A DNA stretch of 15,435 nucleotides from a virus (taxonomy: Duplodnaviria; Heunggongvirae; Uroviricota; Caudoviricetes): IMG/VR virus record IMGVR_UViG_2778261395_000001, one strand, 5' to 3'. The stretch's first letter is position 1, and every line of letters begins with the position of its first letter. Below are positions 1-15,435 of the stretch, one piece after another. The position numbers were made by a program, and so were the translations under genes. The notes under the pieces were generated by a model. That model was not told the origin of the DNA. It searched no databases and worked only from the letters and a program-made list of their open reading frames with translations.

Positions 1-77
1 AGCTGATAGAAACAGAAGCCACTGGAGCACCTCAAAAACACCATCATACACTAAATCAGTAAGTTGGCAGCATCACC
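1..77 (-). mobile_element. insA: IS1 left end (IRL plus first codons of insA), continuing beyond the window start
   Basis: Reverse complement of 1..77 reads GGTGATGCTGCCAACTTACTGATTTAGTGTATGATGGTGTTTTTGAGGTGCTCCAGTGGCTTCTGTTTCTATCAGCT, which I recognise as the IS1 terminus; GTGGCTTCTGTTTCTATCAGC encodes MASVSIS, the InsA N-terminus. The inverted repeat lies at 55..77. Confidence 0.8.
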
Positions 78-431
78 CTGAACGGCATGAAAAATATCAT
101 TCTGATCATTGCATTTACTGACAAAACCGTTAGCACCAGCTTGTATCGCTCTGCCAGCATAAAAGCATTCTGATTTCGATGATAAAAATAACACTTTCAC
201 TGTGCTCTGGATTTGTTTGATCCTTTTCAGGAAGGTAAAACCGTCTGTTCCGGGCAAGTCTATATCCATAATGATTAAATCAACAGGACGGGTTCGGAGA
301 TAATCGATGGTTATGCGGTAATCATCCGTTTTCAGGACAATCTGCAATTCACTGTTTTTTTGCAACGGAACTTCAATAGACATTCTGATGATAGGATGAG
401 TATCCATAATGATCACCGACGTTGGTTTCAT
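51..431 (-). pseudogene. fimZ: fimZ response regulator, receiver domain only (codons 1-118 at 78..431), 3' part displaced by IS1; frame runs 8 codons into IS1 to a stop at 51..53
   Basis: Translation from the ATG at 429..431 gives MKPTSVIIMDTHPIIRMSIEV...DIFHAVQ, a CheY-like receiver domain matching FimZ from memory. No LuxR-type HTH domain follows; the sequence switches to IS1 at position 77. Confidence 0.75.
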
Positions 432-614
432 AGTTGCCAGTCTCATAGGAGCGGACAATTTTCCGTTAGGGCGGTAAATTGTACTTTGATACATGAAAAT
501 ACGGGTTTTCTTGATTCAGACGCGCAGCGGTGTGCGTTTGTTTGCCACTATAGCGAAATAAATCAGAAAATCAGACGCGGTCGTTCACTTGTTCAGCAAC
601 CAGATCAAAAGCCA

Positions 615-642
615 TTGACTCAGCAAGGGTTGACCGTATAAT
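615..642 (+). promoter_or_regulatory. Candidate sigma70 promoter for argU (TTGACT, 16-nt spacer, TATAAT)
   Basis: Consensus -35 at 615..620 and -10 at 637..642, about 30 nt upstream of the mature tRNA 5' end. Confidence 0.5.
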
Positions 643-673
643 TCACGCGATTACACCGCATTGCGGTATCAAC

Positions 674-750
674 GCGCCCTTAGCTCAGTTGGATAGAGCA
701 ACGACCTTCTAAGTCGTGGGCCGCAGGTTCGAATCCTGCAGGGCGCGCCA
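674..750 (+). tRNA. argU: tRNA-Arg, anticodon UCU
   Basis: GCGCCCTTAGCTCAGTTGGATAGAGCAACGACCTTCTAAGTCGTGGGCCGCAGGTTCGAATCCTGCAGGGCGCGCCA: 7-bp acceptor stem GCGCCCT/AGGGCGC, anticodon loop CTTCTAA with TCT at positions 3-5, T-arm GGTTCGAATCC, 3' CCA encoded. Confidence 0.9.
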
Positions 751-765
751 TTACAATTCAATCAG

Positions 766-1929
766 TTACGCCTTCTTTATATCCTCCATAATTCCAGAGT
801 GGGACATATTTGGGACATTATCACCAAAAATGTCGTCTATTTTCCTCGCATGCTCTGTCAAATGATTAGGCGCAAGGTGAGCATACCTACGAACCATTTC
901 TATGGACTCCCATCCGCCCATTTCCTGAAGCACTGATAATGGGACGCCTGACTGAATCAGCCAGCTTGCCCAGGTGTGTCTGAGGTCATGGAAACGGAAA
1001 TCTTCAATTCCTGCACGACGACAAGCTGATAGCCATGATGTCTTGCTGTCGATGCGCATCTTCCTGACCGCAGGCGTTGATGTTCCATCTGCTCGCTTAG
1101 CCGCCTTGGTATGTACAAACACCCATTTGTGATGCTTGCCTATTTGATCACGCAACACTTTACAGGCGGTATCGTTCAGCGCCACACCAATGGCGCGGTT
1201 TGATTTGCTCTCTTCTGGATTCACCCAGGCAACTCGTCGCTGCATGTCGATTTGTTGCCATTCCAGATTTATGATGTTCGACTTTCTCAGACCAGTTGCC
1301 AGCGCAAACTTGACGACAGATTTCAGTGGTTCGGGGCACTCATCAATAAGGCGTTTTGCTTCCTCCTTTTCCAGCCATCTGACTCGCTTGTTTCTGACCG
1401 CTGGTATCTTGATGACAGGCGCTTTTTCCAGCCACTTCCAGTCGCGTTCTGCAGCACGGAGAATGGCCTTTATCATGGCAAGATGCTTTGCCTTTGTCTG
1501 AGTTGATACTGGCTTTGGTTCATAAACAGGCAGTTCTTTACCTTTCCTGATGGCGGCCTGAACTTTCTGTTTCCATATTTCTTTCGTCTTTCTGTTATGC
1601 ATTCTGCTTACAGCAGAGTAAATCTTTGCCTCCGAGATATCTTTAAGCCTTATACCCTCAAAATGTTCAAGCCAGAACTCAATCCGGCTTTTATCTGAAT
1701 CGAGAGATTTTTTATCAGCTTTTTCCTCAAGCCATCTTAGGCAGGCCTCTTCAAAAGTGACATCAGGTAAATCCCCTAGCTTTTCTACTCGCCAGAGTTC
1801 TGCTTTTCGCTTGTCGTGCAACTCCTGAGCTTGCCGCTTGTCCTTTGTGCCAAGAGATTCCTTAATTCGTTTCCCGCCCGGGAGCGAATACGAGGCATAC
1901 CATATTTCATTTCTGCGGAAGAGTGACAT
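766..1929 (-). CDS. intD: Tyrosine-recombinase prophage integrase, 387 aa
   Basis: Complete ORF directly next to the tRNA 3' end; C-terminus carries the catalytic signature [11 protein letters not shown]...VRRYAHL (R..H-x-x-R..Y). Confidence 0.9.
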
Positions 1930-2156
1930 TTTCTTTCCTCTGTTATGCCATCACCCGCGCTCACCTGGACAGTATGCAGCGGAGACTGAAGCGCCGCAAT
2001 GCAGGCTTGCCGTGTTGTGAGGTAAGGAGATTTTGGCTTGGTTGGATCTTTACGTGTTGCCTGTAGGCGGCCTGTTCGTATCCAGTTGGTGGCGGTTGGT
2101 CTGGATATCTTAAGAAACTGACAGGCCTCATCGAGTGTGAGGCTGTATGATTCCAT
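1785..2156 (-). CDS. xisD: Excisionase-like HTH protein (Xis/AlpA-like); the 3' extension overlapping int is of doubtful significance
   Basis: [31 protein letters not shown] has a helix-turn-helix character; ATG at 2156 follows an AGAGGT ribosome-binding site; sits immediately upstream of int. The frame stays open 145 nt into int, so the functional length is uncertain. Confidence 0.5.
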
Positions 2157-2406
2157 GGTTACCTCTGCTTTTTGAACGCATGTCACGTAACTTCTTAATG
2201 TGTTCTGCCGTTTCGATCTCTTCTGCTATCCGATCTGCATCAGCTTTATTCACAGGTTCAAAGTCATGATTAAAGCGGAACATGCTGGCGATACATGTTC
2301 TGCCTTTTCGGATGTAGTGAACTTTGTTGTGGGTAGAACGCAGGATTTTGCAGGGAGTGCCGTGGTGGTCGACGTACCAGGTGTTAGGCAAAATGATTCT
2401 GAACAT
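2128..2406 (-). CDS. Hypothetical prophage early-left protein, 92 aa
   Basis: ORF with a GAGGTG ribosome-binding site 6 nt upstream of the ATG; same strand and tight spacing with neighbours. No motif recognised. Confidence 0.45.
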   Translation of the reverse strand: MFRIILPNTWYVDHHGTPCKILRSTHNKVHYIRKGRTCIASMFRFNHDFEPVNKADADRIAEEIETAEHIKKLRDMRSKSRGNHGIIQPHTR

Positions 2407-2453
2407 TTTTACACCTCAGTTGGACGATGTTGAAATTTGCTGCTTTGAGGCCA

Positions 2454-2672
2454 TCACAATCCCCATTGTTTGTTCTTAAGTTCGATCTCCTCCTGGCAGC
2501 TTGCACAAGTCCGACAACCCTGAACGGCCAGGCGTCTTCGTTCATCTATGGGATCGCCACACTCACAACAATGAGTGGCAGATATAACCTGGTGGTTCAG
2601 ACGACGCATTTTTATTGCTGTATTGCGCTGTAATTCTTCGATTTCTGATGCTGAATCAATGATGTCTGCCAT
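2454..2672 (-). CDS. TraR/DksA-family C4 zinc-finger protein, 72 aa
   Basis: Cys pairs CxxC ... CxxC in ...THCCECGDPIDERRRLAVQGCRTCASCQEE..., typical of phage TraR-like proteins. Confidence 0.55.
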   Translation of the reverse strand: MADIIDSASEIEELQRNTAIKMRRLNHQVISATHCCECGDPIDERRRLAVQGCRTCASCQEEIELKNKQWGL

Positions 2673-2770
2673 CTTCCATTAATCCCTGAATTGTTGGTTA
2701 ATACGCTTGAGGGTGAATGCGAATAATAAAAAAGGAGCCTGTAGCTCCCTGATGATTTTGCTTTTCATGT

Positions 2771-3085
2771 TCATCGCTCCTTAAAGACGCCGTTTAACAT
2801 GCCGATCGCCAGGCTTAAATGAGTCGGTGTGAATCCCATCAGCGTTACCGTTTCGCGGTGCTTCTTCAGTACGCTACGGCAAATGTCATCGACGTTTTTA
2901 TCCGGAAACTGCTGTCTGGCTTTTTTGATTTCAGAATTAGCCTGACGGGCTATGCTGCGAAGGGCGTTTTCCTGCTGAGGTGTCATTGAACAAGTCCCAT
3001 GTCGGCAAGCATAAGCACACAGAATATGAAGCCCGCTGCCAGAAAAATGCATTCCGTGGTTGTCATGCAGCCTCCCGACGGGCAA
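2771..3085 (-). CDS. Hypothetical small phage protein; start uncertain (ATG at 3085, or internal ATG at 2986 giving 71 aa)
   Basis: Open frame on the early-left strand; no recognisable motif; upstream part overlaps the 3' end of the Dam-like ORF. Confidence 0.35.
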   Translation of the reverse strand: MPVGRLHDNHGMHFSGSGLHILCAYACRHGTCSMTPQQENALRSIARQANSEIKKARQQFPDKNVDDICRSVLKKHRETVTLMGFTPTHLSLAIGMLNGVFKER

Positions 3086-3428
3086 GAATCCTTGAGCCGA
3101 ACGCCATCAACTCTCCACGATCAACGGTCGTAAAGTGGCAGTGTGTACGGGGGTATGGGTGCCAGATAATGAGCATCGAGCCTTTATTATTTCCACTGAC
3201 GTGTTTCCCGGTGAGTGGGTTAATAAATGCCAGTCGTCCTGCCGTGATGAATCTGACCTCACTGGCGGTTTGTATCGCTTCATGAAACCATCCGACAGAT
3301 GTGTCAGCAGGTAATAACATTACACATCCCACACTGCTGAATTTGTTTTCAGTGGCTGCCTTTTTCACAAAAGGGGAAATATTGCTGTATGGTGGATTCA
3401 ACCAGACATAACCAGAGGCATATCCCAT
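3063..3428 (-). pseudogene. Phage Dam-like DNA N6-adenine methyltransferase, 5'-truncated fragment
   Basis: NPPY catalytic motif (WLNPPY, nt 3387..3398) followed by LLPADTSVGWFHEAI and EVRFITAGRLAFINPLTG, resembling the phage Dam family. An in-frame stop lies two codons upstream of the first ATG, with no ribosome-binding site or expected N-terminal region. Confidence 0.55.
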
Positions 3429-3438
3429 TGCTTACTGG

Positions 3439-3675
3439 TTGGTTACCAACTTGTACCAGAACATGCGGGCCAATGCGCTGACTGACGCGGAATTACGGCG
3501 CAAGGCTGCCGATGAACTGTCCTGTATGACCGCGCGAATTAACCGTGGTGAGGCGATACCTGAACCAGTAAAACAACTTCCTGTCATGGGCGGTAGACCT
3601 CTAAATCGTGCACAGGCTCTGGCGAAGATCGCAGAAATCAAAGCTAAGTTCGGACTGAAAGGATCAAGTGTATGA
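3439..3675 (+). pseudogene. C-terminal fragment of a lambda P-like replication protein (P')
   Basis: Frame opens after a stop at 3409..3411 with no ATG; ends ...LAKIAEIKAKFGLKGSSV, overlapping the ren start (ATGA), as lambda P does. Identification is from gene order and recalled C-terminal similarity. Confidence 0.5.
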
Positions 3676-3974
3676 CGGGCAAAGAGGCAATTATTCATTA
3701 CCTGGGGACGCATAAGAGCTTCTGTGCACAGGACGTTGCCGCGGTAACAGGTGCAACCGTAACCAGCATAAATCAGGCTGCGGCTAAAATGGCGCGGGCA
3801 GGAATCCTGGTCGTTGATGGTAAGGTCTGGCGAACGGTGTATTACCGGTTCGCTACCAGAGAAGAACGGGAAGGAAAGGTGAGCACGAATCTGATTTTTA
3901 AGGAGTGTCGCCAGAGTGCCGCGATGAAACGGGTACTGAGGGTATATAAAAGAACATCAATGGGAACACAATGA
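3672..3974 (+). CDS. renD: Ren-like protein (lambda Ren homolog), 100 aa
   Basis: MTGKEAIIHYLGTH..FC..DVAA.TGATVTSINQAAAKMARAG..V..GKVWRTVYYRFATREEREGK.STNL.FKECRQSAAMKRVL is close to lambda Ren as I recall it. Confidence 0.8.
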   Translation: MTGKEAIIHYLGTHKSFCAQDVAAVTGATVTSINQAAAKMARAGILVVDGKVWRTVYYRFATREEREGKVSTNLIFKECRQSAAMKRVLRVYKRTSMGTQ

Positions 3975-3991
3975 TGAAACAGGTGAGTTGA

Positions 3992-4026
3992 GTTCAAACT
4001 GTAGTACAATTCTCTCCAGTTTGAAC
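3992..4026 (+). promoter_or_regulatory. Perfect 10-bp stem hairpin (GTTCAAACTG, 15-nt loop, CAGTTTGAAC) immediately upstream of the emrE ribosome-binding site
   Basis: Read directly; lies at the ren/emrE boundary. No T-run follows, so not a classic intrinsic terminator. Confidence 0.4.
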
Positions 4027-4041
4027 AGGAAAGAATATGCT

Positions 4042-4374
4042 ATGAACCCTTATATTTATCTTGGTGGTGCAATACTTGCAGAGGTCATTGGTACAACCTT
4101 AATGAAGTTTTCAGAAGGTTTTACACGGTTATGGCCATCTGTTGGTACAATTATTTGTTATTGTGCATCATTCTGGTTATTAGCTCAGACGCTGGCTTAT
4201 ATTCCTACAGGGATTGCTTATGGTATCTGGTCAGGAGTCGGTATTGTCCTGATTAGCTTACTGTCATGGGGATTTTTCGGCCAACGGCTGGACCTGCCAG
4301 CCATTATAGGCATGATGTTGATTTGTGCCGGTGTGTTGGTTATTAATTTATTGTCACGAAGCACACCACATTAA
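4042..4374 (+). CDS. emrE: Small multidrug resistance (SMR) efflux transporter EmrE, 110 aa
   Basis: MNPYIYLGGAILAEVIGTTLMKFSEGFTRLWPSVG...LLSRSTPH matches EmrE; conserved membrane-embedded Glu14 present; four hydrophobic segments. Confidence 0.9.
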   Translation: MNPYIYLGGAILAEVIGTTLMKFSEGFTRLWPSVGTIICYCASFWLLAQTLAYIPTGIAYGIWSGVGIVLISLLSWGFFGQRLDLPAIIGMMLICAGVLVINLLSRSTPH

Positions 4375-4404
4375 AATAATTTGTTTCTAAACGACTAAAA
4401 TATG

Positions 4405-4447
4405 GAGGCTCTTATATTTATATGAGCCTCGTTTTATGCTTTTTGTT
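4405..4447 (+). terminator. Intrinsic terminator after emrE
   Basis: Stem GAGGCTC / GAGCCTC with an AT loop, followed by GTTTTATGCTTTTTGTT. Confidence 0.55.
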
Positions 4448-4628
4448 AATGTCTTTATTTTTTATGTATTCTTTTGTGCTTTCAAGATTATGGCGTAAGA
4501 AAATTGCAATACGATTATTGTTGTATATTCAAGATAATGTGACCTTAATTGTCTTTTTAAATAAAAATTAAACAAAAATTATATCCCACCACTAAGGTTT
4601 ATAAAAGCATACGTTAGCAGGTGTCACC

Positions 4629-6155
4629 ATGAAAAAAGCCATAGCATATATGCGATTTTCATCACCAGGTCAGATGTCTGGCGACTCATTAAACCGACAG
4701 AGAAGACTTATTGCTGAATGGTTAAAGGTAAATAGTGATTATTATCTTGATACCATAACATATGAAGATTTAGGATTAAGTGCATTCAAAGGAAAGCATG
4801 CACAATCAGGAGCTTTTTCGGAATTTTTAGATGCTATAGAGCATGGTTATATATTGCCAGGAACTACATTGTTAGTTGAAAGTCTGGACAGACTTTCAAG
4901 AGAAAAAGTCGGTGAAGCGATTGAACGTCTGAAATTGATTTTGAATCACGGTATTGATGTTATAACTCTTTGCGACAATACAGTCTATAATATTGACTCT
5001 TTGAATGAGCCATATTCATTAATAAAAGCCATACTTATAGCACAAAGGGCAAATGAAGAAAGCGAGATAAAGTCAAGTCGGGTTAAATTATCATGGAAGA
5101 AAAAACGGCAGGATGCACTGGAATCAGGTACGATTATGACGGCGTCTTGTCCGAGATGGCTCTCCTTAGATGACAAAAGAACGGCTTTTGTTCCAGACCC
5201 CGACAGGGTGAAAACTATTGAGCTAATTTTTAAACTCAGGATGGAAAGGCGCTCATTGAATGCAATAGCCAAGTATTTAAATGATCATGCTGTAAAGAAT
5301 TTCTCAGGAAAAGAAAGTGCATGGGGACCTTCTGTAATTGAAAAATTATTAGCGAATAAAGCTCTGATAGGTATATGCGTACCTTCATATCGTGCAAGAG
5401 GGAAAGGGATAAGTGAAATCGCTGGCTATTATCCCAGAGTCATATCAGATGATTTGTTTTACGCTGTACAGGAAATTCGGTTGGCACCTTTTGGTATTAG
5501 CAATAGTAGCAAGAATCCTATGCTAATAAATCTACTTCGAACAGTTATGAAGTGTGAGGCTTGTGGTAATACCATGATTGTTCATGCGGTATCTGGAAGT
5601 TTGCATGGCTATTATGTTTGTCCGATGAGAAGATTACATCGATGTGACAGGCCATCAATAAAAAGAGATTTGGTTGATTATAATATCATTAATGAATTGC
5701 TTTTTAATTGTAGCAAAATTCAACCAGTTGAAAACAAGAAAGATGCTAATGAAACTTTAGAGTTAAAAATTATTGAGCTTCAGATGAAAATTAATAATTT
5801 AATCGTTGCATTGTCTGTCGCGCCTGAAGTTACCGCTATAGCAGAGAAAATAAGACTATTAGATAAGGAATTACGAAGGGCTTCGGTATCATTGAAAACT
5901 TTGAAGAGTAAAGGTGTAAATTCATTCAGTGATTTTTATGCTATTGACTTAACCAGTAAAAATGGACGAGAGTTATGCCGTACACTTGCCTATAAAACAT
6001 TCGAAAAAATCATAATTAATACGGATAATAAAACCTGTGATATCTATTTTATGAATGGCATTGTTTTTAAACACTATCCTTTAATGAAAGTAATATCCGC
6101 CCAGCAGGCGATAAGTGCTCTCAAATATATGGTTGATGGTGAGATTTATTTCTAA
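4629..6155 (+). CDS. ybcK: Large serine recombinase (resolvase-type catalytic domain, recombinase domain, zinc ribbon), 508 aa
   Basis: N-terminal AYMRFSSPGQ...R motif typical of serine recombinases; C-terminal CEACGN...YYVCP Cys cluster; AGGTG ribosome-binding site; AT-rich codon usage. Confidence 0.8.
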   Translation: MKKAIAYMRFSSPGQMSGDSLNRQRRLIAEWLKVNSDYYLDTITYEDLGLSAFKGKHAQSGAFSEFLDAIEHGYILPGTTLLVESLDRLSREKVGEAIERLKLILNHGIDVITLCDNTVYNIDSLNEPYSLIKAILIAQRANEESEIKSSRVKLSWKKKRQDALESGTIMTASCPRWLSLDDKRTAFVPDPDRVKTIELIFKLRMERRSLNAIAKYLNDHAVKNFSGKESAWGPSVIEKLLANKALIGICVPSYRARGKGISEIAGYYPRVISDDLFYAVQEIRLAPFGISNSSKNPMLINLLRTVMKCEACGNTMIVHAVSGSLHGYYVCPMRRLHRCDRPSIKRDLVDYNIINELLFNCSKIQPVENKKDANETLELKIIELQMKINNLIVALSVAPEVTAIAEKIRLLDKELRRASVSLKTLKSKGVNSFSDFYAIDLTSKNGRELCRTLAYKTFEKIIINTDNKTCDIYFMNGIVFKHYPLMKVISAQQAISALKYMVDGEIYF

Positions 6156-6619
6156 ATAATGATCTCGGATTTTAAGTTATGCTATGGTGATAAAGTGCAA
6201 GACAGAATTAATTATCTTTGACGAAACTTAATGGGTAATTACTTTGTTTGCTCCCACAAGCGAGTTTTGTACGGCTGTATTGGGGTAGTAAATGAGCTAT
6301 ACAATCTTAATCATTTGTTAGGTGAGAACTCTTGGTCGCAGATTCAAATACTGAAAATACGTGACAAATTATTATGAGCAAAATGGTGTATGTCACGTAT
6401 TTTGAATGGTAGGTTAAAAAATAACACCGACTTTCGTAGGTATTACTAATAATAAAGCAGAGTTTTTAGATAGTATCAATGTGCTTTGTGTATATTGTGG
6501 CAAATAATTGGGTTGGGGGTACAATTGTGATTGCTTTTGCATGAACATTGCGCCTTTATGCATAATGAGATAAAGGAATATCAAATAAAATAACGATAGG
6601 TCATAACAAAGAGGTTTTT

Positions 6620-7171
6620 ATGAAAACACTTATCGTTTCAACTGTATTGGCATTCATAACATTTTCTGCGCAGGCTGCAGCATTTCAGGTCACTAGTAAT
6701 GAAATAAAAACAGGAGAGCAACTTACAACGTCTCATGTCTTTTCTGGATTTGGGTGTGAAGGTGGTAATACATCGCCCTCATTAACCTGGTCTGGTGTTC
6801 CTGAAGGTACCAAAAGCTTTGCCGTAACTGTATATGATCCAGATGCACCTACAGGCAGTGGTTGGTGGCATTGGACTGTTGTTAATATTCCAGCAACAGT
6901 AACATATTTGCCCGTTGATGCAGGGAGACGTGATGGAACAAAACTGCCGACTGGTGCTGTTCAAGGCCGAAATGATTTTGGCTATGCTGGGTTTGGTGGC
7001 GCATGTCCTCCTAAAGGAGATAAACCACATCATTACCAGTTTAAAGTATGGGCTCTAAAAACTGAAAAGATTCCTGTAGATTCTAACTCCAGCGGAGCGT
7101 TAGTTGGTTATATGCTTAATGCTAATAAAATCGCAACCGCTGAGATAACACCAGTTTATGAGATAAAGTAG
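6620..7171 (+). CDS. ybcL: Periplasmic PEBP/RKIP-family protein (YbcL-like) with signal peptide, 183 aa
   Basis: Signal peptide MKTLIVSTVLAFITFSAQA; PEBP-like core motifs DPDAP and HHY; AGAGGT ribosome-binding site. Confidence 0.8.
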   Translation: MKTLIVSTVLAFITFSAQAAAFQVTSNEIKTGEQLTTSHVFSGFGCEGGNTSPSLTWSGVPEGTKSFAVTVYDPDAPTGSGWWHWTVVNIPATVTYLPVDAGRRDGTKLPTGAVQGRNDFGYAGFGGACPPKGDKPHHYQFKVWALKTEKIPVDSNSSGALVGYMLNANKIATAEITPVYEIK

Positions 7172-7180
7172 GGTGAGAGT

Positions 7181-7978
7181 ATGCTGGCAAGAGGTAAGAC
7201 TAACTTAAAGATCGAAGAAATACGGATGCATAAACATCATGAGATTCATAGGGTTAAGCCTCTTATGCCAGCTTTGTGTCGTATCCGTCAGGGAAAGAAA
7301 GTTATCAATTGGGAGACGCATACTTTAACTGTTGATAATAATCAAATAATATTATTTCCTTGTGGTTATGAATTTTATATTGAGAATTATCCTGAAGCAG
7401 GGCTTTATCTTGCAGAAATGCTTTACTTACCCATTGATTTAATTGAGAGTTTCCAAAAACTTTATACGGTAACTGATCAAATACGTAACAAAACAAGTTT
7501 CTTTTTACCTCAGAATCCTGAGTTAATATATTGTTGGGAGCAACTAAAAACATCTGTTTCCCGAGGCTTCTCAACTAAAATTCAGGAGCACTTAGCAATG
7601 GGCGTTCTACTATCGTTAGGAGTGAATCATGTTAATCATTTACTTTTATCATATAGTAAACAATCATTGATAAGTCGTTGTTATAACCTGCTGCTATCCG
7701 AACCCGGCACAAAATGGACAGCAAACAAGGTTGCTCGATATCTCTACATTTCTGTTTCTACATTACATCGCCGTCTAGCAAGCGAGGGGGTAAGTTTCCA
7801 AAGTATACTGGACGATGTGAGGTTAAATAATGCGTTGTCTGCTATACAAACGACGGTAAAACCTATAAGCGAGATTGCCAGAGAAAATGGTTATAAGTGT
7901 CCTTCTCGTTTTACTGAAAGATTTCATAATCGTTTTAATATAACACCAAGAGAGATAAGAAAAGCTTCCAGAGAGTAA
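7181..7978 (+). CDS. ybcM: AraC/XylS-family transcriptional regulator, 265 aa
   Basis: C-terminal AraC-type HTH region (...[33 protein letters not shown]...[15 protein letters not shown]); starts 10 nt after ybcL, so probably co-transcribed. Confidence 0.75.
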
Positions 7979-8042
7979 AAGTGTTTTAAGAAGGAGCAAT
8001 TCTATCGATTTTGATTTTGGGAAATCAACACGGCATAATTAT

Positions 8043-8080
8043 GTCACCGGAGCCTGAACAACTCCGGTGACTTCTGCGCT
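8043..8080 (+). terminator. Hairpin with perfect 10-bp stem (GTCACCGGAG / CTCCGGTGAC) followed by TTCTGCGCT; possible terminator after ybcM
   Basis: Read directly; the T-tract is weak, so terminator function is uncertain. Confidence 0.4.
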
Positions 8081-8094
8081 AAACGGGGACGTTT

Positions 8095-8196
8095 ATGCGC
8101 ACATACAATCCAAACTCTCTTCTCCCTTCACAGATGCAGAAATGCACCTGCAATTCTTTGCATCTAGCGTTTGACCTCTGCGGAGGTGAAGCGTGA
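8095..8196 (+). CDS. ylcH: Small ORF, 33 aa (ylcH-like), stop overlapping the ybcN start
   Basis: [33 protein letters not shown]; coding status not demonstrable from sequence alone. Confidence 0.3.
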
Positions 8197-8648
8197 ACCT
8201 CTCACAAGACGGCATCAAATTACATCGCGGCAACTTCACCGCTATCGGTCGGCAGATCCAGCCTTATCTGGAGGAGGGCAAATGCTTTCGCATGGTGCTT
8301 AAACCGTGGCGTGAGAAACGCAGTCTTTCCCAGAATGCACTCAGCCACATGTGGTACAGCGAAATCAGTGAATACCTCATCAGCAGGGGTAAAACGTTCG
8401 CCACTCCAGCTTGGGTAAAAGATGCTCTCAAACACACATATCTCGGTTATGAAACCAAAGACCTGGTTGATGTCGTAACCGGTGATATCACCACTATCCA
8501 GTCGTTACGCCATACCTCCGACCTTGATACCGGAGAGATCTATGTCTTCCTGTGTAAGGTTGAAGCCTGGGCGATGAATATTGGCTGCCACCTGACTATT
8601 CCGCAGAGCTGCGAGTTCCAGCTGCTGCGTGATAAGCAGGAGGCGTAA
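8193..8648 (+). CDS. ybcN: NinB-family phage protein (YbcN-like), 151 aa, GTG start
   Basis: Complete ORF starting at a GTG after GGAGGTG; first gene of a tightly overlapping nin-type operon. Confidence 0.75.
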
Positions 8649-8818
8649 TGGCTACACCGCTTATTCGTGTCATGAACGGACACATCTACAAAGTACCAAA
8701 TCGTCGTAAGCGTAAGCCTGAGCTGAAACCATCCGAAATACCAACACTGCTCGGATATACCGCCAGCCTGGTTGATAAAAAATGGTTGCGACTGGCAGCA
8801 AGGAGGAATCATGGCTGA
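8648..8818 (+). CDS. ninE: NinE-like small protein, 56 aa
   Basis: [37 protein letters not shown]...; start overlaps the ybcN stop (TAATG). Confidence 0.65.
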   Translation: MATPLIRVMNGHIYKVPNRRKRKPELKPSEIPTLLGYTASLVDKKWLRLAARRNHG

Positions 8819-9101
8819 TTTGAGAAAAGCAGCGCGTGGTCGGGAATGCCAGGTAAGAATCCCTGGCGTATGTAATGGCAATCCTGAAACGTCTGTACTG
8901 GCACATATCCGGCTGGCTGGATTGTGCGGTACCGGTATCAAACCGCCAGACCTGATTGCCACCATTGCATGTTCTGCCTGTCACGACGAGATCGACCGTC
9001 GCACGCATTTTGTTGACGCTGGATATGCAAAAGAATGCGCGCTGGAAGGTATGGCGAGAACGCAGGTTATCTGGCTGAAAGAGGGGGTAATTAAGGCGTG
9101 A
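8811..9101 (+). CDS. ybcO: Cys-rich nin-region protein (YbcO-like, putative nuclease), 96 aa
   Basis: [42 protein letters not shown]...[13 protein letters not shown] with conserved Cys/His cluster; AGGAGG ribosome-binding site. Confidence 0.7.
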
Positions 9102-9460
9102 ATACCTACAATATCACATTACCCTGGCCGCCGAGCAATAATCGCTATTACCGCCATAATCGCGGGCGCACGCACATCAGCGCAGAGGGGCAGGCATACC
9201 GCGAAAACGTCGCCCGAATCATTAAAAACGCAATGCTGGATATCGGCCTGGCTATGCCTGTGAAAATCCGCATTGAGTGTCACATGCCGGATCGCCGTCG
9301 CCGTGACCTGGATAATCTACAAAAGGCCGCTTTTGACGCACTCACCAAAGCAGGTTTCTGGCTGGATGATGCTCAGGTCGTTGATTACCGCGTTGTGAAG
9401 ATGCCGGTTGTCAAAGGTGGAAAGCTGGAACTGACCATCACTGAACAGGGAGATGAATGA
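9098..9460 (+). CDS. rusA: Holliday junction resolvase RusA, 120 aa
   Basis: [36 protein letters not shown]...[31 protein letters not shown] matches RusA with catalytic Asp residues. Confidence 0.9.
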
Positions 9461-9597
9461 TGTTTGAGTTTTATATGGCAGAACTTCTTCGCCACCGCTG
9501 GATGCGCCTGCGCTTATATCGTTTCCCCGGTTCTGTTTTGACCGATTACCGAATACTGAAGAATTACGCCAAAACACTGACAGGAGCAGGAGTATGA
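9457..9597 (+). CDS. ylcG: Small nin-region ORF, 46 aa (ylcG-like)
   Basis: [46 protein letters not shown]; start overlaps the rusA stop. Confidence 0.4.
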
Positions 9598-9682
9598 AGT
9601 CAGAGATAACAATCAACTAATACTGTTTTGTTGATTTTTGCTTGTAATTGGCGTTCTGGTCTGAGTTTTGTGGAGTAAGTTG

Positions 9683-10066
9683 ATGCGTGATATTCAGATG
9701 GTTCTTGAGCGTTGGGGAGCGTGGGCGGCTAATAATCATGAAGATGTGACCTGGTCGTCCATTGCCGCCGGTTTTAAGGGATTAATTCCTTCAAAAGTAA
9801 AATCTCGCCCACAATGTTGTGACGATGACGCGATGATCATTTGCGGGTGCATGGCCCGTCTGAAAAAGAACAACAGCGATTTGCATGATTTATTAGTAGA
9901 TTATTATGTAGTCGGTATGACATTCATGTCACTGGCAGGTAAGCATTGCTGCTCTGATGGTTATATCGGGAAAAGGTTACAGAAGGCTGAGGGCATAATT
10001 GAAGGGATGTTAATGGCATTAGATATCCGGTTAGAGATGGATATCGTTGTTAATAACTCTAATTAA
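9683..10066 (+). CDS. quuD: Late-gene antiterminator Q-like protein, 127 aa
   Basis: [24 protein letters not shown]...[16 protein letters not shown]... with Cys-rich zinc-binding region; GGAGTAAG ribosome-binding site; sits at the end of the nin region where Q is expected. Confidence 0.8.
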
Positions 10067-10255
10067 TATGCCAATTGTTTACTAAAAATTATTAAAAATG
10101 GGGCGTTGAGACGCCCCCAAAAATAAAGGGTAATATATAACAGAAGGTTTATATAGTTAGAAGCAAGGTTGTGCTTCTAAAGGAAGTGGCTTGAGGGAGC
10201 CACTTATATGTTGGGGAGGCAAAGCCTCCCGCAACATATCTTTTTCGTAATCAGA
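10067..10255 (+). promoter_or_regulatory. Hairpin-rich region downstream of Q: candidate late promoter/qut/terminator, including a near-perfect ~15-bp palindrome (10208..10241) followed by CTTTTT
   Basis: Stems GGGGCG/CGCCCC (10098..10115), GTGGCT/AGCCAC, and ATATGTTGGGGAGGC-AAA-GCCTCCCGCAACATAT, then a T-run. Functions are inferred from position only. Confidence 0.35.
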
Positions 10256-11338
10256 TTAGAACTGATACACCAGACCTACAGCGACGATGTCGTCGGTATC
10301 AATACCAGCTGTTTTGGTAAACTTACTATCGTCAATTAAGTTGATTTTGTAATCAACAAAAGTGGACATGTTTTTATTAAAGTAGTAAGTAGCACCGACA
10401 TCGACATACTTGACTAAGTCTCGGTCACCATGAACACCAAGGTCTTTACCTTTTGACTGAAGGTAAGCAACAGATGGTCGCAGACCGAAGTCAAACTGAT
10501 ATTGTGCTACTGCTTCAAAGTTTTGTGCTTTGTTTGCAATATGGTTATTACCAAAAACGGTCATATTCTGAGTTTCAGAATATGTGGTAGCCAGATAGAT
10601 ATTGTTCGCATCATATTTCAGGCCTGCAGCCCATACTTCCGCATTTTTGCCGGAGGCATTGAATTTGCTCTTACCATAGGCGACCTGACCGTCAGTGCGA
10701 TCTGATTTAGCATAGGTTGCACCCACGCCGAATCCTTCATACTCATAAGTAGTGGAGAAACCGAAACCATCACCATTGGCTTCAGTTACGTCAGTGCGGT
10801 CATTTTTACCCTGATACTGAGCAGCAAAGTTCAGGCCATCGACCAGACCAAAGAAGTCGTTGTTACGATAGGTTGCAACACCAGTGGTGCGACCAGTCAT
10901 GAACACATCTGTTTGGGTCCAGGTATCGCCACCGAATTCTGGCAGAACGTCAGTCCACGCACCGATGTCGTATGCTACACCGTAGTTACGGCCGTAATCG
11001 ATTGAGCCGTAGTCACCGAATTTCAGGCCTGCAAATGCAAGACGGGTTTTGTCTTTGGAGGAACCTTGAGATTCAGCGCGGTTGCCTTTGAATTCATATT
11101 CCCACTGACCGAAACCAGTCAGTTGATCGTTGATTTGGGTTTCACCTTTGAAGCCAAGACGGGCATAAGTAGTATCACCATCATCTGCATCGTTAGAGGA
11201 AAAGTAGTGCTTGGCATTAACTTTCCCGTACAGATCCAGCTTGTTACTGTCTTTATTATAAATTTCAGCTGCCTGAGCAGACATCGCCATCAGTACTGAT
11301 GCAGCTACAGCAGAAATTGCCACTGTTAATTTTTTCAT
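10256..11338 (-). CDS. nmpC: Outer-membrane general porin (OmpC/OmpD/NmpC family), apparently intact, 360 aa
   Basis: Signal peptide [23 protein letters not shown], then [17 protein letters not shown]...; ends with the porin C-terminal signature ...VAVGLVYQF. Confidence 0.9.
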
Positions 11339-11926
11339 CGTGAGCCCTTTTTTTTGAACTATTATTAAAAAATGATGTCACTGCGCGATAAATATTCATC
11401 TAATCAATGTGATTATTTCAAGATGTAAGTTTTAGTTTCTCATTTAATTTGTGAAGTAGATCTCTATTTTTATCTGAACTTTTTCTATCGAAACCTATTT
11501 ATGGCTCTTATTTGAACAAAAATAAACCTATTAGCTAATTTATATTAATGGCTGTTATTTATGGGGGTTCTATAATTCAGTGGTTTAATTTAAATCAACT
11601 AAAAATAACGCCGGAAATTATTTATTGGTTATTTGTTGAGGTTTTCTTATATATTTGTGGTGGTGTTTTGAACACTCGGTAGCATTCTCATAAATATCAT
11701 TCAGTGGTTTACGTACGTAAAAAATTGGTTATGCTGTTAAGAGTGGTTACTTCGTCACACAGCTTAAACCCGCCGTCGAGCTGGTTTTTCCATTTTTTGA
11801 GTCTCGATATTAGCTGATAACTCAATACCTGAGTTATTCACTGACTCCGAGTCTGTTACGTTTCTGCTTTTTTGCGATACGTTGTATTCCCTCAATTTAC
11901 ACCCGCTTTGTCTGCGAGGTGGGGTT

Positions 11927-12142
11927 ATGAAATCCATGGATAAGTTAACAACGGGTGTCGCCTATGGCACCTCAGCAGGTAGTGCCGGTTACTGGTTTTT
12001 ACAGCTGCTCGATAAAGTCACGCCCTCACAGTGGGCAGCAATAGGTGTGCTGGGTAGCCTGGTATTTGGCCTGCTGACGTACCTGACAAACCTTTATTTC
12101 AAGATTAAAGAAGATAAGCGCAAGGCTGCGAGAGGTGAATAA
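11927..12142 (+). CDS. essD: Phage 21-type pinholin (S21-like) with dual-start motif MKSM, 71 aa
   Basis: [71 protein letters not shown]: two transmembrane segments; Met1 and Met4 give antiholin and holin starts; GAGGTGGGG ribosome-binding site. Confidence 0.85.
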
Positions 12143-12639
12143 TGCCTCCATCATTACGAAAAGCCGTTGCTGCTGCTATTGGTGGCGGAGCAATTGCTAT
12201 AGCATCAGTGTTAATCACTGGCCCAAGTGGTAACGATGGTCTGGAAGGTGTCAGCTACATACCATACAAAGATATTGTTGGTGTATGGACTGTATGTCAC
12301 GGGCATACAGGAAAAGACATCATGCTCGGTAAAACGTATACCAAAGCAGAATGCAAAGCCCTCCTGAATAAAGACCTTGCCACGGTCGCCAGACAAATTA
12401 ACCCGTACATAAAAGTTGATATACCGGAAACAACGCGCGGCGCTCTTTACTCGTTCGTTTACAACGTGGGCGCTGGCAATTTCAGAACATCGACGCTTCT
12501 TCGCAAAATAAACCAGGGCGATATCAAAGGCGCATGTGATCAGCTACGTCGCTGGACATATGCTGGCGGTAAGCAATGGAAAGGTCTCATGACTCGTCGT
12601 GAGATTGAGCGTGAAATCTGTTTGTGGGGTCAGCAATGA
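12142..12639 (+). CDS. rrrD: SAR (signal-arrest-release) endolysin / lysozyme, 165 aa
   Basis: Gly/Ala-rich weakly hydrophobic N-terminal domain ([20 protein letters not shown]), then lysozyme catalytic region ...[23 protein letters not shown]...; start overlaps the essD stop (TAATG). Confidence 0.85.
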
Positions 12640-13096
12640 ACAGAGTAACCGCGATTATCTCCGCTCTGGTTATCTGCATCATCGTCTGCCTGTCATGGGC
12701 TGTTAATCATTACCGTGATAACGCCATTACCTACAAAGCCCAGCGCGACAAAAATGCCAGAGAACTGAAGCTGGCGAACGCGGCAATTACTGACATGCAG
12801 ATGCGCCAGCGTGATGTTGCTGCACTGGATGAAAAATACACGAAGGGTTAGCTAATGCGAAAGCTGAAAATGATGCTCTGCGTGATGATGTTGCCGCTGG
12901 TCGTCGTCGGTTGCACATCAAAGCAGTCTGTCAGTCAGTGCGTGAAGCCACCACCGCCTCCGGCGTGGATAATGCAGCCTCCCCCCGACTGGCAGACACC
13001 GCTGAACGGGATTATTTCACCCTCAGAGAGAGGCTGATCACTATGCAAAAACAACTGGAAGGAACCCAGAAGTATATTAATGAGCAGTGCAGATAG
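12636..13096 (+). pseudogene. rzpD: Rz-like inner-membrane spanin interrupted by a -1 frameshift near 12845..12850
   Basis: N-terminal part ([21 protein letters not shown]...DEKYTKG, stop at 12849..12851) is in frame 0; the remaining Rz-like sequence (..[29 protein letters not shown]...INEQCR, ending 13096) is in frame 2. Confidence 0.7.
12855..13037 (+). CDS. rzoD: Rz1-like outer-membrane lipoprotein spanin, 60 aa, embedded in the Rz region
   Basis: MRKLKMMLCVMMLPLVVVGCTSK... with lipobox VVGC and Pro-rich mature part (PPPPPAW..PPPDW). Confidence 0.7.
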   Translation: MRKLKMMLCVMMLPLVVVGCTSKQSVSQCVKPPPPPAWIMQPPPDWQTPLNGIISPSERG

Positions 13097-13121
13097 AGCT
13101 GCCCATATCGATGGGCAACTC
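13095..13121. terminator. Hairpin between convergent Rz and borD (GAGCTGCCCAT-ATCG-ATGGGCAACTC)
   Basis: Stem of about 11 bp with one mismatch, positioned between the two convergent stop codons. Confidence 0.45.
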
Positions 13122-13127
13122 ATGCAA

Positions 13128-13421
13128 TTATTGTGAGCAATACACACGCGCTTCCAGCGGAGTATAAATGCCTAAAGTAATAAAACCGAGCAATCCATTT
13201 ACGAATGTTTGCTGGGTTTCTGTTTTAACAACATTTTCTGCGCCGCCACAAATTTTGGCTGCATCAACAGTTTTCTCCTGTCCAATTCCCGAAACGAAGA
13301 AGTGATGGGTGATGGTTTCCTTTGGTGTTACTGCTGTCGGTTTGTTTCCAACAGTAAACGTCTGTTGAGCACATCCTGTAATAAGCATTGCCAGAGCGGC
13401 AGAAAACAACATTTTTTTCAT
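13128..13421 (-). CDS. borD: Bor-family outer-membrane lipoprotein (lambda Bor / Iss homolog), 97 aa
   Basis: MKKMLFSAALAMLITGCAQQ... with lipobox LITGC; start taken at the internal Met that begins the signal peptide. Confidence 0.85.
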   Translation of the reverse strand: MKKMLFSAALAMLITGCAQQTFTVGNKPTAVTPKETITHHFFVSGIGQEKTVDAAKICGGAENVVKTETQQTFVNGLLGFITLGIYTPLEARVYCSQ

Positions 13422-13781
13422 CTTATTATCCTGCATTGTTAAAAACGGCAGAATCCTATGTGACAACAATTAAACGATAGTTAAATGGATTGATGAAAAT
13501 TAAAACTATATAGGTGGATGCTCAGCCTATTGGAGGAGGGGGGGCACTCAGAATCCTGTGGAATGAAATAAACCGCTCTTTCTGTCCATTACCCTTTTAG
13601 CTGCGCTGTATCGTCGCCGTATTCCCGCATTAACCATGACCGTAGCCCGACGGGGAATTCCTTCTGCGTGAGTGTGCGGGAATAATCAAAAACGATGCAC
13701 ACCGGGTTTTACTGTGCTGACAGACGCAGGGTTACCCTCATAGTCGCTTTTCCGGTGCGATGGTGGAAGAAACCGGGATGT

Positions 13782-13976
13782 TTATTCATCATCACTCTGG
13801 ATTGATGTATATGCTCTCTTTTCTGACGTTAGTCTCCGACGGCAGGCTTCAATGACCCAGGCTGAGAAATTCCCAGACCCTTTTTGCTCAAGAGCGATGT
13901 TAATTTGTTCAATCATTTGGTTAGGAAAGCGGATGTTGCGGGTTGTTGTTCTGCGGGTTCTGTTCTTAGTTGACAT
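13782..13976 (-). CDS. Small basic protein with ribbon-helix-helix-like pattern, 64 aa (ylcI-like)
   Basis: MSTKNRTRRTTTRNIRFPNQMIEQINIALEQKGSGNFSAWVIEACRRRL...: a short beta-strand then amphipathic helices, as in Arc/CopG-type folds. Fold assignment is inference. Confidence 0.45.
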   Translation of the reverse strand: MSTKNRTRRTTTRNIRFPNQMIEQINIALEQKGSGNFSAWVIEACRRRLTSEKRAYTSIQSDDE

Positions 13977-14139
13977 GAGGTTGCCCCGTATTCAGTGTCG
14001 CTGATTTGTATTGTCTGAAGTTGTTTTTACGTTAAGTTGATGCAGATCAATTAATACGATACCTGCGTCATAATTGATTATTTGACGTGGTTTGATGGCG
14101 TAGATGCACGTTGTGACATGTAGATGATAATTATTATCA

Positions 14140-15435
<1,296 letters not shown>

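Follow-up and report, generated by a model that had tools for sequence, protein, structure and literature searches.

A single-base deletion splits the Rz spanin gene rzpD of a DLP12 prophage and leaves the embedded Rz1 coding sequence complete

The lysis cassette of the prophage described here raises the question of how an Rz inner-membrane spanin gene came to be divided between two reading frames, with the Rz1 gene embedded in it open from start to stop. An initial annotation had attributed the division to a 1-nt frameshift and had named a sequencing error as the alternative. Comparison with related prophages, complete genomes, phage records and public contigs indicates that a recent and real deletion of one A very probably pseudogenised rzpD of DLP12 in one small lineage, as ordinary decay of a cryptic prophage gene.

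The DLP12 prophage and the two parts of rzpD

The window, the whole stretch of 15,435 bases that was analysed, is the defective lambdoid prophage DLP12 of Escherichia coli at the argU site. Positions 78-15435 are collinear with the annotated DLP12 of PCP07083 at an identity of 99.97%, and E. coli B REL606 also matches the window except for insertions in REL606. From left to right the window carries an interrupted fimZ (fimZ′), tRNA-Arg, intD, emrE, ybcK-ybcO, rusA, quuD, a porin gene on the minus strand, essD, rrrD, rzpD/rzoD, bor/iss on the minus strand, ylcI and a tail-tip gene remnant, and it is the tRNA-Arg neighbour together with the genes from intD to bor that identifies the element as DLP12. 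The porin, a protein of 360 aa of the NmpC/OmpC family (10256-11338, minus strand), is intact in the window and in PCP07083 and split by IS1 in REL606. At the right end, REL606 has about 1,054 extra bases at window position 14870, between the end of the terminase small-subunit gene and a partial tail-tip gene that lacks its N-terminus, whereas in the window and PCP07083 the ylcI region runs directly into the tail-tip gene. A 372-aa ORF antisense to the tail-tip gene (14266-15384, minus strand) is probably spurious. At the left end, positions 1..77 are an IS1 end that is 100% identical to an IS1 end in REL606 (locus L002:11883-11959) and that interrupts fimZ after codon 118 (window 1-77 and 78-431). 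The fimZ gene of PCP07083 carries a different IS1 insertion, which suggests recurrent insertion of IS1 in fimZ within this strain group.

The lysis region has the expected composition, with essD, rrrD and rzpD/rzoD following one another in this order through overlapping stop and start codons. The essD gene (11927..12142, plus strand) encodes a phage-21-type class II holin, or pinholin, of 71 aa (PF04971, E=2e-35) and shows no difference from the annotated essD of PCP07083 and REL606, while rrrD (12142..12639, plus strand) encodes a lysozyme-family endolysin of 165 aa with an N-terminal hydrophobic, SAR-like segment (PF00959, E=1.3e-45) and is identical to the annotated rrrD. The region ends with the bor/iss lipoprotein gene (13128..13421, minus strand; PF06291, E=6.4e-31), annotated as iss in PCP07083 and REL606. 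EssD, RrrD, Rz1 (PF06085) and Bor are all intact and identical to annotated proteins of reference strains, in agreement with the initial annotation, which had read the pinholin and the SAR endolysin as undamaged.

The exception is rzpD. Translation in frame 0 from the ATG at 12636 yields a 71-aa Rz N-terminus that ends in ...ALDEKYTKG before the TAG stop codon at 12849-12851, so that the 5′ fragment occupies 12636..12851 on the plus strand. The last 82 Rz codons (residues L72-R153) lie out of frame at 12848-13096 on the same strand; their frame 2 is open from 12833, after the TGA at 12830-12832, and encodes the Rz C-terminus ...YINEQCR up to the TAG at 13094-13096. These frames, their stops and the position of Rz1 are as the initial annotation had placed them. 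The Phage_lysis/Rz family profile PF03245, which has 126 positions, matches the 71-aa fragment over its positions 1-42 (E=6.9e-10) and the 82-codon remnant over positions 44-126 (E=1.1e-38), and this collinearity of the two fragments excludes chance resemblance to Rz.

Alignment locates the lesion to a single base. Relative to every close relative, one A is absent from the motif AAGGAG between window positions 12846 and 12847 (plus strand), leaving AAGGG, and the resulting change from AAGGAGTTAG to AAGGGTTAG is the sole gap of the window in a multiple alignment with PCP07083, REL606, 13P484A and phage PhiR30_1, as the frameshift proposal had anticipated. When one A is put back, the gene encodes a 153-aa Rz that occurs without any difference as RzpD on at least 1000 public contigs. 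As it stands in the window, the gene is 99.8% identical in DNA to annotated rzpD. With the base missing, a ribosome starting at the ATG at 12636 would enter the Rz1 frame and meet a TAG that already existed just upstream of the Rz1 start.

The closest known counterpart is the B/C-type rzpD/rzoD pair of E. coli DLP12 (RzpD WP_001301134.1), with which the window shares the locus, the neighbouring genes, 461 of 462 bases and the common 60-aa Rz1/RzoD protein, and from which it differs in the missing A, in an RzpD that ends at residue 71 of 153 and in an Rz1 Shine-Dalgarno sequence of AGGG instead of AGGAG. This counterpart corrects one detail of the initial annotation, in which the ancestral sequence was given as K-E-L-A-D-A (GCTGATGCG), a lambda/K-12-type allele. 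The immediate ancestor is AAGGAGTTAGCTAATGCG, encoding K-E-L-A-N-A; its GCT AAT GCG (Ala-Asn-Ala) is that of the E. coli B/C-type DLP12 allele, where lambda has GCT GAT GCG, and only the lost A belongs to the event. What the window carries is a presumptive null allele of rzpD, a familiar gene of a familiar cryptic prophage, and its truncated product is already in RefSeq.

Predicted consequences for the spanin and for Rz1 translation

In lambda, Rz is composed of a transmembrane domain (TMD, residues 1-24), coiled-coil 1 (CC1, 27-87), a linker, coiled-coil 2 (CC2, 121-150) and a short C-terminal domain, and nonsense alleles at 34 positions across the periplasmic domain are lysis-defective, as are stops at 151 and 152 (Cahill et al., PMC5295617). 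The window shares with the Rz/Rz1 genes of lambda and phage 21 the embedded +1 architecture, the TMD-CC1-linker-CC2 layout, the Rz1 lipoprotein and the position after the endolysin. It differs from them in its split i-spanin, which matches the lambda Rz nonsense alleles inside CC1, a lysis-defective class (PMC5295617), and in that the element is a non-inducible prophage remnant and not a phage. The 71-aa stub comprises the TMD and the first two thirds of CC1, and the 3′ remnant encodes the rest of CC1, the linker, CC2 and the cysteines C99 and C152. The spanin of the window thus has the homology, the embedded architecture and the position of its family and is not a single i-spanin polypeptide spanning the periplasm from a TMD to Rz1, as the ORF ends after residue 71, within CC1.

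A stub of this kind would lack everything from the remainder of CC1 onwards, including the linker, CC2, the two cysteines of the periplasmic domain and the C-terminus through which Rz touches Rz1. The 82 downstream codons contain no ATG or GTG start, Shine-Dalgarno sequence, membrane anchor or export signal, and their sole in-frame start, the TTG at 12911, is not preceded by a Shine-Dalgarno sequence; they would not be expected to complement the stub, and a working Rz made of two separate pieces was rejected for the same lack of a start, a Shine-Dalgarno sequence and a TMD or signal that could direct export. No complex of Rz and Rz1 would then bridge the periplasm, and the pinholin and the SAR endolysin would still degrade the murein, with the outer membrane not efficiently ruptured. 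By analogy with lambda genetics, in which the Rz gene used for the comparison is about 98% identical in DNA to the gene considered here, a stop within CC1 suggests that spanin function is lost, and the cassette would be expected to behave like that of a lambda Rz mutant, with no active breaching of the outer membrane. A 61-aa C-terminal ORF beginning at the TTG at 12911 was also considered in relation to database protein P0032 and set aside, since the gene behind that record belongs to a different prophage allele (93% identity), is truncated where its contig stops and does not represent the frameshift of the window.

The effect of the deletion extends to the gene embedded in rzpD. The rzoD gene (12855..13037, plus strand; PF06085, E=2.9e-20) encodes Rz1, the o-spanin lipoprotein, as a complete ORF of 60 codons whose exact sequence is found on at least 1000 contigs under the name RzoD, and it has the characteristics of an o-spanin embedded in the +1 frame, with the PF06085 match, a lipobox VVG/C and Thr-Ser after the Cys in comparison with the SpaninDB entry. 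The lost A belongs to an AAGGAG that precedes the Rz1 ATG by 7 nt, and AGGAG is the predicted Shine-Dalgarno sequence of phage-21 Rz1 in SpaninDB, the curated spanin table of Kongari et al. (PMC6139136). For the 20 nt upstream of the start codon paired with the 3′ end of 16S rRNA, the predicted anti-Shine-Dalgarno duplex weakens by 3.7 kcal/mol, from -8.3 to -4.6 kcal/mol. The new Rz stop codon, in turn, lies 3 nt before the Rz1 ATG, an arrangement that could permit termination-reinitiation. The loss of a Shine-Dalgarno base together with the placement of a stop 3 nt before the start codon suggests that the synthesis of Rz1 is probably altered as well. The statement in the initial annotation that Rz1 stays intact thus holds for the coding sequence and leaves out that the predicted Shine-Dalgarno sequence AGGAG is hit by the deletion. 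Where one gene is embedded in another, a change of a single base can strike one partner in its coding sequence and the other in its ribosome-binding site.

Escherichia phage PhiR30_1 (PV340558.1), a close relative with E. coli C as its recorded host, also has a 1-nt deletion in its Rz/Rz1 pair. That deletion, which has no connection with the one in the window, shortens a C6 homopolymer to C5 further downstream (locus L005, about position 1846, corresponding to window 12982-12987). It fuses Rz(1-116) to the C-terminus of Rz1 and shortens Rz1, with an annotated Rz of 402 nt. This homopolymer deletion may be a sequencing error; if real, it would describe a phage with neither spanin subunit.

Distribution and inheritance of the deletion

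The short form of Rz is not the conserved state of the phage family, a possibility that the initial annotation had considered. The junction created by the deletion is absent from 5,426 complete E. coli genomes (0/5,426), in which the best matches to the 461-bp region all have 462 bases and 99.8% identity. Among the same complete genomes, an 80-bp query across the junction finds no match of at least 99% and a 32-mer centred on the deletion, which seeds megablast only if the deletion is present, finds no megablast match. The junction is likewise absent among phage records, where the best match, mEp332 (99.6%), keeps the extra base, and exact scans for the junction with a 39-mer, a 31-mer and a 17-mer in GTDB species representatives, JGI metagenomes and IMG/VR returned nothing real. 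The 17-mer matches were discarded as chance occurrences in unrelated MAGs without any other similarity to the cassette.

The allele is found in a narrow set of public assemblies. Its exact 71-aa product is deposited as WP_425401441.1 / EPY2159632.1 on three contigs, two of which were recovered, namely NNZA01000061.1 (15,265 bp, GCA_002487245.1) and ABTTQN010000051.1 (20,983 bp, GCA_040969395.1), and over the deletion each of them matches the window at 100% identity. A marker for this lineage is provided by YbcN M116I, a G-to-C change at window position 8540 in codon 116 of ybcN, which yields a protein present on only seven public contigs. All three of the M116I contigs that reach rzpD carry the deletion. 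In another member of the YbcN-I116 lineage, GCA_025292515.1, the dinucleotide TG is missing inside ybcL (locus L018, position 1171, corresponding to window 7004-7005) and no ybcL is called, a loss that represents either another DLP12 frameshift or an assembly error.

E. coli strain 13P484A (NZ_CP019280.1, locus L006, 1331-1795), in which rzoD is annotated and rzpD is not, was considered as an independent disruption of rzpD and rejected. Its Rz ORF is intact (...RERLVMMQAQLEGAQQYITEQCLK) with a mosaic C-terminus, and its omission from RefSeq is an annotation gap.

Selection, error and recoding as alternatives

The preferred reading takes the loss of rzpD to be neutral, and its best-surviving competitor is that spanin loss is adaptive, either limiting explosive lysis or altering envelope turnover and vesiculation through a domesticated DLP12 module. 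Such a role has some basis in K-12, where the DLP12 lysis operon is transcribed, its genes modulate the production of outer membrane vesicles (OMVs), and deletion of rzpD/rzoD gives a modest, approximately 1.7-fold rise in OMV-associated porin (Pasqua et al., PMC7918800), and every member of the lineage in which rzpD can be assessed carries the deletion. Clonal fixation is, however, expected of any neutral mutation, and the allele is confined to a single tiny lineage set against an intact protein on at least 1000 contigs, and neither this lesion nor a comparable one was found to have arisen independently in the 5,426 complete E. coli genomes. The ybcL deletion of the sister contig also fits general decay. 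From these observations, on three contigs, an adaptive origin appears unlikely. As a natural DLP12 allele that is Rz-null with an intact Rz1 coding sequence, the locus could serve as a control in work on the host roles of the cassette in OMV formation, peptidoglycan turnover and biofilm formation.

A more specific proposal concerns the altered start region of Rz1. In it, Rz1 production is shifted from internal initiation driven by the Shine-Dalgarno sequence to termination-reinitiation, and the orphan Rz1 and the 71-aa Rz stub are kept because they temper DLP12-driven lysis or vesiculation to the benefit of the host. This arrangement is very unlikely, and a version in which low-level -1 slippage supplies a trickle of full-length Rz is still less likely.

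An error of sequencing or assembly, with a true rzpD intact at 153 codons, is an even poorer account and must be considered highly improbable. In its favour are the absence of the allele from the complete genomes and the short G run (GGG) that the deletion leaves behind, the locus being judged from assemblies. Against it, the missing A is the sole indel over 15,358 aligned bases in the comparison with PCP07083, the closest complete genome, which otherwise shows three substitutions; one indel in 15.36 kb indicates that the assembly is not indel-noisy. The lost base is moreover not part of a homopolymer in the ancestral GGAG, and the 77 bases of IS1 at the end of the contig suggest that short reads were assembled with a de Bruijn graph, a method in which consensus indels would be rare. 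The identical deletion recurs in the two recovered contigs, whose ends differ from those of the window, which identifies them as separate assemblies. One of these, GCA_040969395.1, has an uninterrupted fimZ of 210 aa with sfm genes beyond it where the window has the IS1 end, and since the window carries IS1 in this gene, no fewer than two isolates that can be told apart genetically have the deletion in common. It is conceivable that all three assemblies go back to closely related cultures and a single sequencing platform. The sequencing-error alternative of the initial annotation is thus disfavoured by a deletion that is present in three contigs or assemblies, two of them from distinguishable isolates. 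Apart from fimZ, GCA_040969395.1 is 100% identical to the window over 15,358 bases.

Recoding by a -1 slip, for instance at the A5 run (12832-12836) or at the G GGU that precedes the TAG, so that some full-length Rz is restored, has a probability close to nil: the shift needed is indeed -1, and the A5 run and the G GGU UAG context fall within the 17 nt between the TGA at 12830-12832 and the TAG at 12849-12851, but positions 12833-12851 contain no X XXY YYZ heptamer, shuffled sequence folds as well as the RNA downstream (z = -0.20), conservation of the junction was seen in none of the collections searched, and a private and recent mutation allows no selection for a programmed recoding signal. 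Sites of this kind usually show very little spontaneous slippage, and the site has none of the marks of programmed -1 frameshifting, namely the heptamer, a stimulatory structure downstream and conservation among relatives.

The preferred reading of a recent deletion inherited within one lineage has small importance outside annotation. There it implies that the 71-aa ORF WP_425401441.1, named 'lysis system i-spanin subunit Rz', is better annotated as a pseudogene fragment.
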